Shown: positions 1 through 2,057 of the stretch, piece after piece
How positions within the stretch are numbered: position 1 is the first letter of the stretch
How the letters are laid out: each line of letters starts with the position of its first letter
Assembly: GCA_016283195.1 (NCBI GenBank)
Contig: JAEEML010000037.1
Location: 1-57,120 of the forward strand
DNA length: 57,120 nt
Source: Deltaproteobacteria bacterium
GTDB lineage: Bacteria > JAEEML01
Direction of reading: 5' to 3'
Notes under the pieces: generated by a model
Seen by the model: only the letters and a program-made list of their open reading frames with translations
What the model was told of the DNA's origin: nothing
The model's database searches: none
Made by a program: the position numbers and the translations under genes

Positions 1-73
1 GCCTCTGGCTTAGCCGGGGCTTGTGCCCCGGCCAGACCTCACCCCTGCAACTATGCGATATTATTGACTAATC

Positions 74-96: not shown

Positions 97-242
97 AAAA
101 TGAAGTGTGCCCTTCAAAGTAGACACATTCTCCGAGATGGCACACTGCTAAGGCGTTCCACTATAGCTCGGTGGTCGTTTATGAAAAACATTTAAATTCG
201 AATAGATGGGCCCTCTCTATTTGTAAAAATGGAGACAATATG

Positions 243-340
243 TAGTGACCTCACTGTGTAAGTCTCGTGGATTTACCTGTGATATTACCGATGTTAAACA
301 GCGGTAAAAGGAATTACCGCATTACAAGGAGGTCACTATG
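243..340 (+). promoter_or_regulatory. Structured transposase leader that can sequester the RBS and start codon
   Basis: TAGTGACCTC (243-252) is the exact reverse complement of GAGGTCACTA (329-338), which covers part of the AGGAGG RBS and the A of ATG; inner hairpin GCGGTAA/TTACCGC (301-320). Confidence 0.6.
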
Positions 341-1609
341 CTTGATTATAACACAATTTATGTTGGAATGGATACCCATAAAAATTCTACTTCTCTTTGC
401 GCTTTTTACGAACCGACACGCGAATATTTCGAGCCGGCTAAAGTGGGAACTTTTGATGGCATACTCAATTATTTGAAAAAGCTGACCAATTATAAACCAG
501 GCATCAGAATTATTTGTGGTTATGAGGCCGGGTGTACCGGTTTTGCGCTTTATCGTTACCTCACAGCTCATGGTATTAAATGTCGGGTTATTGCTCCATC
601 TACCATTAAGGAAGAACGCAGCAAACGGCGTGTTAAAACTGATAGACTCGATGCCCTAAAACTCGCTCAATCCCTGGCATTTGACCAATGTAAGTTTGTC
701 GCAGTGCCAACTACTGAAATAGAGGCTATTAGAGATTACATTCGGATGCGCGATGATCTTAAAGCTGAACTTAAACGCATTAAACAGCACATTAAAGCCT
801 TTTATTTGAGGCACAACAAACAATTCGACAAAAAAGAATCTTGGAATATACAACATCTTGCTTGGCTCAAAAAACTAACTTTTACCGAACCGTTACTCCG
901 CGAAACTCTTGATGAATATTTAACACATTATAACGATTTGATAGACAAAATAGCTACTCTTGATAAACGTATTTTAGAAATCGCCGAGCGTCCGGAATAC
1001 AAGAAGAATGTTAAAAATTTAAGCTGCATTAAAGGAGTTACACCTTTGTCTGCGTTAGCCTACATCAGTGAAATCGGTGATTTTAATCGTTTTGCATCAG
1101 CTAGCCAATTTGCCTCCTTTTTGGGACTAACTCCGGGCGAATATTCCAGTGGCGAAAAAGGACAAAAACTTGGTATCACCAAAGCAGGAAATACGCATAT
1201 GCGTCGCTTGCTGATTGAAGGTGCTAACACATACAAAAGAGGAGCGGTTAGCACTATATCCTCAACAGTAAAACAAAGGCAAAAAGACGCGCCGGAAGAA
1301 ATAATAATGTATGCCAATAAGGCAAGCCGCCGCTTACTGCGAAAATATCTCAAACTGACAATCGACAAGAATAAACCCAGCAATGTGGCAGCAACAGCTG
1401 TGGCTCGTGAATTATCCGGATTTATATGGGGAATGATGACAGACCGCCATCAGGTACCACCGGCAGCACCAAAGCAGGAAATAACAGCAAAAACTCTTTT
1501 ACAGGCGTTAAAACGCGATGTTAAACGGCAAGAAGAAGCCGCTAAAGAGCAGAAACATAGTAAAAAGAAAACTAAGAGTTCTAGTGATATTAAAACTGAA
1601 AGTATGTAA
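338..1609 (+). CDS. IS110-family DEDD transposase/recombinase, 423 aa
   Basis: RuvC-like motifs YVGMD, GYEAG, KTDRLDA; C-terminal Tnp motif FLGLTPGEYSSG (catalytic Ser) and ITKAGN; RBS AGGAGG. Confidence 0.96.
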   Translation: MLDYNTIYVGMDTHKNSTSLCAFYEPTREYFEPAKVGTFDGILNYLKKLTNYKPGIRIICGYEAGCTGFALYRYLTAHGIKCRVIAPSTIKEERSKRRVKTDRLDALKLAQSLAFDQCKFVAVPTTEIEAIRDYIRMRDDLKAELKRIKQHIKAFYLRHNKQFDKKESWNIQHLAWLKKLTFTEPLLRETLDEYLTHYNDLIDKIATLDKRILEIAERPEYKKNVKNLSCIKGVTPLSALAYISEIGDFNRFASASQFASFLGLTPGEYSSGEKGQKLGITKAGNTHMRRLLIEGANTYKRGAVSTISSTVKQRQKDAPEEIIMYANKASRRLLRKYLKLTIDKNKPSNVAATAVARELSGFIWGMMTDRHQVPPAAPKQEITAKTLLQALKRDVKRQEEAAKEQKHSKKKTKSSSDIKTESM

Positions 1610-1656
1610 TTACAGGTAATTAGGGAACAACGGCGATGACAACAATAACCTCGTAT

Positions 1657-1851
1657 GAAGGCATCTGGGATGAGACAGAATGTAGGTTTGAGCTATCCGC
1701 GAGCCCTCTCTGTGGCACTTAAATGTGATCCACGCATGGAGACTTGAGAGATGAAGGAGCTCACGACGGACCATTGGCCTGTAGGTAACCAATCCACGAA
1801 TATCAGAGTGGTCAAATGTCGAAGAAATTCTGTCTCATCCCCAATGCCCTC
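1657..1851 (+). ncRNA. Bridge RNA / seekRNA of the IS1111-type element (ends approximate)
   Basis: 15-bp closing stem (1667-1681 with 1827-1841) encloses two stem-loops whose loop strands match the target (CCCTCT 1704-1709, ATGGAG 1736-1741) and the donor (ATATCAG 1800-1806). Confidence 0.82.
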
Positions 1852-1902
1852 AGATGGGTTAAAAAACGGAGCTTGCACATGAAAGAATTCTAAAAAATAC
1901 CA

Positions 1903-1908
1903 TTGACA
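1903..1908 (+). promoter_or_regulatory. Outward-facing -35 (TTGACA) completing a promoter at the circle junction
   Basis: Joining the ends at the AG core gives TTGACA-N18-GACAAT, the usual IS110/IS1111 junction-promoter layout. Confidence 0.65.
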
Positions 1909-2057
1909 AACGGTCACTACATATCAGAGGGTGCGCTGCCAAATTTCCACGACTTGTGGGGTGAGGGCGCCGCAGGCAGAGGGGCGATTTTCTTAAATGA
2001 CTTGCTTCTAACAGTGAATTTTTTTCGAAATTTTTCGGCCAGGTAAGCTTTTGAAAG

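Follow-up and report, generated by a model that had tools for sequence, protein, structure and literature searches.

The analysed window (the whole stretch of DNA, 57,120 nucleotides in length) contains, at positions 235-1927, a 1,693-bp mobile element of the IS110 family and of the IS1111 type, a size that counts one copy of its AG core. The element comprises a transposase/recombinase gene, two ends with inverted repeats and, downstream of the gene, a structured non-coding RNA domain with two guide-bearing loops, and it interrupts one copy of a repeated intergenic hairpin element (Table 1).

Table 1. Positions of the element, its RNA and its target within the window
Feature	Positions	Strand	Basis or content
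Left half of target (repeated intergenic hairpin element)	201..232	+	Recurs beside the right flank at uninterrupted sites
Left copy of AG core	233..234	+	AG at both junctions; family core AG or GG
Left end	235..337	+	Extension ACA 235-237; subterminal inverted repeat ATATGTAGTGACC 238-250; conserved CGTGGATT block 266-273
Transposase/recombinase gene (423 aa, IS110 family)	338..1609	+	Pfam domains, IS621 structure alignment, catalytic residues
Structured non-coding RNA domain (long seekRNA / bridge RNA)	1657..1851	+	Fold energy, compensatory changes, covariance model
Target-binding domain	1690..1762	+	Closing helix GAGCT/AGCTC 1690-1694/1758-1762; inner hairpin GGCAC/GTG..CC 1714-1718/1725-1731; conserved ATCCACG 1728-1734
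Top-strand target guide CCCTCTC	1704..1710	+	Complementary to GAGAGGG, which runs from the last left-target base through the AG core to the fourth right-target base
Bottom-strand target guide ATGG-AG-AC	1736..1743	+	Left target, core and first two element bases; identical to left junction 229-236
Donor-binding domain	1764..1821	+	CGACG/TGTCG 1764-1768/1817-1821; GACCA/TGGTC 1769-1773/1809-1813; conserved AATCCACG 1791-1798
Top-strand donor guide ATTG-GC-CTG	1773..1781	+	Pairs discontiguously with C-AG-A-CAAT of the joined ends
Bottom-strand donor guide ATATC-AG	1800..1806	+	Right end and core
Right end	1903..1925	+	-35 TTGACA 1903-1908, directed outward; subterminal inverted repeat GGTCACTACATAT 1912-1924; 1-base extension C 1925
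Right copy of AG core	1926..1927	+	Junction comparison, metagenome joins
Right half of target repeat	1928..1990	+	AGGGTG.., then G-rich block GTGGGGTGAGGGCG

The element, its target repeat and its transposase

A search of window positions 200-1960 against the organism's own genome returned 24 matches in all, and each of the two flanks is also found separately at many places. At C190, C141 and C3 the flanks (201-235 and 1926-1960) abut with a 3-base AGA overlap, and a 42-base model of the empty site, with up to 8 substitutions allowed, matches 10 genomic places, the one on C190 with 0 substitutions. The same join (232 to 1926, with 1693 bases skipped) is present in contigs of two public gut-metagenome runs and, as a variant, in a third run. 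Thus, the empty target AAAATGG-AG-AGGGTG, which a first-pass annotation of this DNA had deduced from the junctions, is a real sequence. The same AG, followed by A, stands at both junctions (233-235 and 1926-1928), which by themselves leave a 3-base ambiguity and would allow either an AG or a GA core; AG is preferred because the conserved ends of the family (left ..AG/GG+A[C/T]AATATG, right ..CATA[T/A]C+AG/GG) place the core as AG or GG. In full, the family left end reads core (AG or GG) plus A[C/T]AATATG[A/T]A[A/G]TGACC, and the right end consists of the complementary repeat followed by [T/A]C and the core.

The anatomy of the element is that of the IS1111 group in most respects. The subterminal inverted repeats (238-250 and 1912-1924) are perfect over 13 of 13 bp, within the 7-17 bp that characterize the group, and are flanked by short terminal extensions (ACA and C); the layout of the left end is kept in homologues. 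The larger non-coding segment lies downstream of the gene (316 bases, 1610-1925, vs. 103 bases upstream, 235-337), again as in IS1111 elements. Within its own genome the element is complete in this window only, and a second copy, cut by the end of contig C135, occupies the same position in a different repeat copy, beyond which the sequence is unrelated. These two occupied copies of the repeat, taken together with the empty ones, reveal a site- and orientation-specific insertion without duplication beyond the core. A candidate third copy on contig C109 was rejected, as the left-junction 14-mer is present there in flanks that show a chance match and no element. The contamination figure of the assembly is 4.18%.

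The target consists of a hairpin (CCCTCTC, a 14-base loop and GAGAGGG) followed by the G-rich block; CCCTCTC at 212-218 pairs with the GAGAGGG that is split by the insertion. A 10-base word across the insertion site occurs 63 times in the genome vs. ~5.6 occurrences expected from composition. Viewed as a sequence family, the target is a dispersed intergenic repeat with a 7-bp-stem hairpin, an A/T-rich loop and the G-rich block GTGGGGTGAGGGCG, and copies of it were located on contigs C190, C141, C163, C3, C13, C177, C2, C115 and C82 of the same genome. A second, GC-rich palindromic repeat, GCCTC.GGCTTAGCCGGGGC...GCCCCGGCC, was noticed at window positions 1-60 and on the reverse strand of C135; it stands upstream of both occupied target copies, at differing distances. 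In some metagenome contigs, positions ~21-33 are linked via different intervening letters to 178-211 or to 1958/1969. These arrangements suggest a modular, variable array of repeats.

The 423-residue product of the gene contains the Pfam domains PF01548 (DEDD_Tnp_IS110, 6.2e-17) and PF02371 (Transposase_20, 1.2e-20), and its C-terminal domain aligns to the IS621 transposase structure 8wt6 (E 6.6e-9) across the catalytic Ser-Gly segment. In an alignment of fetched loci the residues of the DEDD motif (D12, E63, D102 and D105) are invariant in all 71 relatives, while S270 is kept in 69 and S271 in 70 of the 71. The motif GL-P----S(T)G takes the form GLTPGEYSSG, with LTPRRYESG as its counterpart in the IS621 protein (8wt6). 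The length of the protein is the one feature by which the element departs from those that define the IS1111 group: IS1111 transposases are stated to have 330-350 aa (PMC11187229), the reading frames of 70 relatives span 335-380 aa, and the relatives match only residues ~1-370. The remainder, residues 371-423 (window 1447-1606), is a Lys/Glu/Ser-rich C-terminal extension of ~50 residues, for which a match was found in none of 80 relatives.

A conserved RNA structure downstream of the gene

A protein scan across one genome per species yielded 80 loci at 36-51% identity, mostly from gut Lachnospiraceae and other Clostridia, with some from Treponema, Actinomycetota and Planctomycetota; plasmid records add elements of Butyrivibrio and Bacillus thuringiensis (44-47%) as well as enterobacterial ones (~38%). 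Both junctions, with enough flanking sequence, were available for 37 sources (the window and 36 loci). Their non-coding regions were aligned using the donor guide as an anchor, and upon removal of identical segments 29 sequences were retained; left out were 4 duplicates and four loci (L027, L042, L062 and L096) in which the anchor word taken from their own right junction is absent.

Folding of the region and a covariance model built from homologues, both proposed in the first-pass annotation as checks, came out in favor of a structured RNA. The segment 1657-1851 has a minimum free energy of -70.1 kcal/mol (z = -4.46), and none of 200 shuffled sequences is as stable. A basal stem of 15 bp (1667-1681 / 1827-1841) encloses two stem-loop domains, and among the 29 homologues all 8 of its aligned pairs have changed in both partners. 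The stem TGAGCT/AGCTCA, described earlier from the window sequence, is present (1689-1694 / 1758-1763), and the helix GAGCT/AGCTC within it closes the target-binding domain with good support from homologues (95% paired, compensatory changes at 8 of 8 pairs), as does the inner hairpin of this domain (91% paired, compensatory at 5 of 5). The donor-binding domain is the most conserved part of the RNA, and its helices vary little. For this domain the closing helix proposed earlier, GACCA/TGGTC (1769-1773 / 1809-1813), does exist in the window but is not the best-supported one, being 77% paired in the family with an A.C second pair in 22 of 29 homologues; CGRCG/YGYCG (CGACG/TGTCG in the window) is better kept, with 89% of cells paired and a compensatory A-U in 2 sequences, one of which is the window.

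We have tested a structure of 33 pairs, specified by ourselves, over the 29 homologues. Standard pairs fill 89.1% of the cells, vs. 77.7% in column shuffles and 36-47% when the partners are slid by 1-3 columns, and 25 of the 33 pairs change on both sides (128 cells); none of 500 shuffles reaches any of the five measures, a count that is not a probability, since the sequences are related. The slid controls, which keep the relatedness, point in the same direction. G-U pairs are frequent (e.g., 23 of 29 at columns 157/225), in agreement with the + strand only. Many compensatory pairs accompany the helices that RNAalifold recovered, namely the basal helix and, in the target domain, the closing helix and the inner hairpin. 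A further pairing from this program, between the two target guides around the core (columns 76-78/128-130), is to be expected where both guides cover the core, and we do not take it as evidence of an RNA helix. A local donor-loop hairpin TGGC/GCCG from the same program, which competes with CGRCG/YGYCG, was set aside, the sequences being too conserved for a choice between them.

The resulting covariance model, R1 (a 142-position core with 25 pairs), was run on 55 sources outside the alignment and on the window. One + strand match downstream of the gene was obtained in 51 of the 55 sources, and the four sources without a match have at most 156 bases after the stop codon. The sole match in the 57-kb window is at 1682-1827 and scores 117 bits. 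Further R1 matches are a plasmid element of B. thuringiensis (1e-20), an element of E. coli that is annotated as ISEc45 (6e-6) and, without annotation, a plasmid element of Shigella (1e-6). A scan of positions 1-2400 with Rfam 15 at E up to 1 returned no matching family. A structured RNA with two guide-bearing loops has been kept by compensatory change.

A separate observation concerns sequence depth. The segment 1761-1840 stands out in four gut-metagenome runs, where its summed contig depth exceeds that of the other parts of the element by a factor of ~10 to several hundred (2474 vs. ~5 at its highest), and loose contig ends just upstream of it carry other target guides. The donor module of the RNA is common to many other elements in gut communities, with different guides.

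Covariation of the guides with insertion sites and element ends

Two guide-like segments are found in the non-coding regions of the 37 sources. One is complementary to the core and the right flank, and the other, ~30-46 bases further downstream, is identical to the left flank, the core and the first two bases of the element; spacing and order are as read, not counted, from those of the 37 loci in which both guides were found. In the window, the top-strand match (1704-1710) lies 5' of the bottom-strand match (1736-1743), which is the order published for IS1111 seekRNAs (PMC11187229). The agreement of CCCTCT (1704-1709) and ATGGAG (1736-1741) with the two target halves had been recognized earlier, and it extends beyond chance, as the guides for both strands, which overlap at the core, covary with the insertion site across the family.

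Covariation was measured as the run of matches outward from the core at fixed alignment columns. Top-strand guides match their own right flank over a mean run of 4.72 (n = 29) vs. 0.44 for non-cognate combinations (812 pairs), and bottom-strand guides match their own left flank over 3.15 (n = 27, leaving out two loci without a recognizable core word) vs. 0.70 (702 pairs). When the targets were permuted 20,000 times, the observed sum was not reached once in either test, and the same holds when the set is reduced to 22 sequences with distinct guides. The misses include L101, whose top-strand guide scores 0 (it is shifted by one column), and L095, with 0 at the left flank; low left-flank scores of 1 and 2 are seen in three and nine loci, respectively. 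The result extends to a held-out set of 26 loci, namely those of 49 held-out R1 matches with a credible right junction and at least 6 bases of flank: here, the mean run of the top-strand guides is 3.23 vs. 0.40 for non-cognate flanks, and again 0 of 20,000 permutations reach the observed sum (21 distinct guides), with 11 of the 26 loci scoring 0-2, partly from column shifts in the model alignment. The guide/target covariation that the first-pass annotation had named as a check is thus present in both training and held-out loci. The window itself is at the low end of the family, with 4 right-flank bases matched beyond the core by its top-strand guide; in the repeat variant with a C after GGG (12 sites) the match comprises 5 bases. 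The guides of relatives have been re-targeted naturally, from which the reprogrammability of the present pair may be anticipated.

One of the loci left out of the alignment, L042, has AG at its left junction and GG at its right one. Its guides differ accordingly, with CC in the top-strand and AG in the bottom-strand guide, and two different cores are thus read by one RNA.

The same covariation bears on the possibility that the region is an ordinary 3' UTR element (a terminator, an mRNA stabilizer or an antisense regulator) whose matches to the junctions arose by chance. The lack of an Rfam match would agree with such an origin, and the palindromic target makes the target guides partly complementary to each other, which inflates the predicted fold. 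Nevertheless, guides that follow the insertion sites in two sets of loci, along with a consensus scan that found no terminator-like site on the + strand in 1610-1925, render this explanation extremely improbable.

The donor guides were tabulated for all 78 R1 matches, wherever the ends are readable. In 61 of 65 loci, the 3' donor guide continues after ATA with the four bases of the right-end extension and core. By variant, the agreement is 25/25 for ACAG, 15/16 for ACGG, 17/18 for TCAG (the one miss being an extraction failure), 2/2 for TTAG and 1/1 for both GCAG and CGAG; two loci with the odd junctions TCAT and TCGG carry TCAG. The match of ATATCAG (1800-1806) to a donor half, seen in the first reading of the window, is accordingly a case of a family-wide rule in which this guide follows the right-end variants. 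The 5' donor guide is ATTG in 34 of 34 loci with the left end ACAA, and in loci with the left end ATAA it is ATTA (10/15) or ATTG (5/15, where G opposite T is a wobble). The pairing of the top-strand donor guide (1773-1781) is discontiguous, with two RNA bases opposite one DNA base, similar to the right-donor-guide pairing reported for IS621 (PMC11208160). Hence, the earlier remark that ATTGGCCT (1773-1780) matches its donor half only partly is correct, and such a partial match is the family norm. Both donor guides match the joined ends and covary with them.

These donor-side data also bear on an alternative in which the RNA guides only the choice of target, with the donor domain as a scaffold to which the protein binds and with the ends recognized by the protein via the subterminal inverted repeats. 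The near-invariance of the donor domain in sequence and the conservation of the inverted repeats across the family are compatible with it, as is a published experiment on ISEc11, in which an 82-nt RNA with the target match only supported transposition better than the long form (PMC11187229). The donor domain may not be strictly required, since by that account the short target-matching RNA of ISEc11 sufficed for movement. Against a pure scaffold role, the donor guide varies along with the right-end extension and core (in 61 of the 65 loci, as given above), and ATTA/ATTG likewise tracks the left-end variant, so we consider target-only guidance unlikely and retain the reading in which the donor loop recognizes the ends.

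The first-pass annotation had further described a bipartite guide with a handshake at both loops, and this layout stands in part. The two guide loops are present, and so is a handshake-like extension in the target loop: behind the core, the bottom-strand target guide continues with the two bases that begin the left end, for AC in 30 of 34 loci, for AT in 14 of 15 and for AA in 1 of 1 (45 of 50 overall), so that the AC of the window is indeed donor sequence, which follows the left end across homologues. A handshake in the donor loop is not supported, and the layout and the guide order are not those of IS621. The two bases after the core in the donor loop are AG in 40 and AA in 10 of 55 loci, i.e., near-constant scaffold rather than target sequence, and they equal the right flank in only 7 of the 55 (five from one clade, the window and L092). 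The AG/AG match of the window is best read as a coincidence with constant scaffold bases.

In IS621, the handshake guides are reported to be the right target and right donor guides (PMC11208158), whereas in the present element the donor-derived bases are on the target guide that binds the bottom strand. Because of this position, the bottom-strand target guide matches the integrated left junction perfectly. The left end has a further family feature, a conserved promoter-like TTGTAG-17-TATACT (258-290 in the window), whose spacer holds CGTGGATTTACC, the reverse complement of the RNA motif AAUCCACG. The latter precedes both bottom-strand guides, and its reverse complement appears as CGTGGATT at 266-273. 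Of 15 distinct non-consensus motif triples, 5 keep 8 of 8 pairs (two of them compensatory), 4 keep 7 of 8 and 6 keep at most 6. It is conceivable, though rather unlikely, that the RNA in this clade does more than the two published loops would imply, with an altered strand order or a role in excision, together with a contact to the left end. If so, either the bottom strand would be exchanged first or the same guide would drive excision, both of which differ from the IS621 order, and a third RNA-DNA (or RNA-mRNA) contact would let the guide RNA repress or sense the transposase promoter.

Expression, mobility and relation to known RNA-guided elements

Of 49 distinct right ends, 43 contain a perfect TTGACA at a distance of 16-17 bases from the terminus (17 in the window). 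Joining of the ends would place the G of the core and the left-end A[C/T]AAT (G+ACAAT in the window) after this -35 box, and the putative promoter would exist only in the circular form. A promoter formed at the circle junction, with its -35 in the right end, has been described for ISEc11 (PMC11187229). Within the integrated form, a consensus scan of 150-2060 found 4 promoter-like sites, all on the - strand, vs. 3.8 expected from shuffles.

The missing + strand promoter-like site in that scan would suit a recent but inactive relic, in which RNA and gene look intact while movement has been lost, and the same may be said of the presence of only two copies in a genome with 63 sites of the 10-base target word and of the unusual 50-residue C-terminal extension. 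This is nonetheless quite unlikely in view of an open frame with all catalytic residues (D12, E63, D102, D105 and S270/S271-G), perfect inverted repeats, an RNA that scores 117 bits against the family model, and copies with at least 99% identity in contigs of several gut-metagenome studies, alongside filled and empty sites; near-identical copies of the element were found in 20 gut-metagenome runs from 11 studies, and the same kind of search, with positions 237-1925, listed no RNA run that contains the element. The earlier description of the element as intact is borne out by these features, and judging from its sequence the element is apparently active.

The anatomy of the element, the conservation of the fold and the way in which all four guides covary with the target or the ends are direct observations, and a mechanism can be proposed around them by analogy with the published family mechanism. 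The 3' non-coding region would be transcribed on the + strand, most likely together with the transposase mRNA from the promoter formed upon joining of the ends in the circle. The transcript would then fold into a seekRNA / bridge RNA with two guide domains on a common basal stem; its donor domain would bind both strands of the joined ends, through AUUG..CUG and AUAUCAG. The RNA-bound DEDD/Ser recombinase would exchange strands at the AG core, and copies of the repeat would be expected to receive the element always at the same position and in a single orientation. Transcription, processing, protein binding and strand exchange, as well as reprogrammability, are here presumed to follow those of studied relatives. 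By its location, loops, guides, their order and their covariation, the RNA has every feature by which a seekRNA / bridge RNA is recognizable in sequence, and we consider it very probable that it is a genuine RNA guide of an IS1111-type element.

Guide RNAs of this kind have been described in two published lines of work. According to Siddiquee et al. (2024; PMC11187229), seekRNAs of IS1111 elements are essential and reprogrammable and are purified together with the transposase. The covariance models of Durrant et al. (2024; PMC11208160) predict bridge RNAs for 93.0% of IS1111s, with ISCARN28, ISAzs32 and ISPa11 as named examples. As judged from the published descriptions (PMC11187229), the present RNA resembles the seekRNAs of ISEc11, ISPa11, ISKpn4 and ISPst6 in its place in the non-coding region downstream of the gene of an element with subterminal inverted repeats, in a top-strand match that is 5' of the bottom-strand match, and in the overlap of both matches at the insertion point. 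A right-end -35 from which a junction promoter may be built also recalls the seekRNA elements, and a target that is a repeated, foldable extragenic element has its parallel in ISPa11, which targets a REP. The sizes agree as well (a target domain of 73-75 nt and ~175-195 nt for the whole, vs. published short forms of 70-100 and long forms of 145-170 nt). Unlike those IS1111 seekRNA elements, the present one encodes a transposase of 423 aa, not ~340. From the enterobacterial relatives it is separated by a protein identity of ~38% and a remote RNA (R1 E-values of 1e-5 to 1e-6). An identification of the Shigella plasmid relative (L105) with ISEc11 was dropped, as its guide positions are unlike the published ISEc11 target (PMC11187229).

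With the bridge RNA of IS621, as published, the RNA shares a design of two internal loops, which serve the target and the donor, respectively, with a guide per strand and the core in all four guides; also shared are the discontiguous pairing of a right-donor-type guide and a recombinase with DEDD and Ser domains (PMC11208160; Hiraizumi et al. 2024, PMC11208158). The published system differs in that the RNA is 5' of the gene (3' here), the order of the guides is reversed and the core is CT (AG/GG here), and, unlike IS621, the present element has long inverted repeats and a donor loop without a covarying handshake. The predicted IS1111 bridge RNAs (PMC11208160) have the same right-end location and two-loop design; the clade described here is found mostly in gut Clostridia, with additional members in Treponema and on Bacillus plasmids.

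Overall, the claim of a new recombinase-RNA pair is sustained in the sense of a new member, but not for the kind of system, which was described in 2024, and the current picture of how RNA-guided IS110 systems work is unchanged. What this study adds is a well-defined and apparently active pair of an RNA-guided recombinase and its guide RNA from a gut bacterium, in whose genome the repeats composed of a hairpin and a G-block are landing pads for a mobile element. The clade as a whole (~80 loci) combines conserved scaffolds with varied guides, so that the guide code can be read from natural insertions, and this natural "reprogramming series" is useful for choosing and engineering bridge recombinases as well as for annotating the insertion specificity of IS1111 elements.
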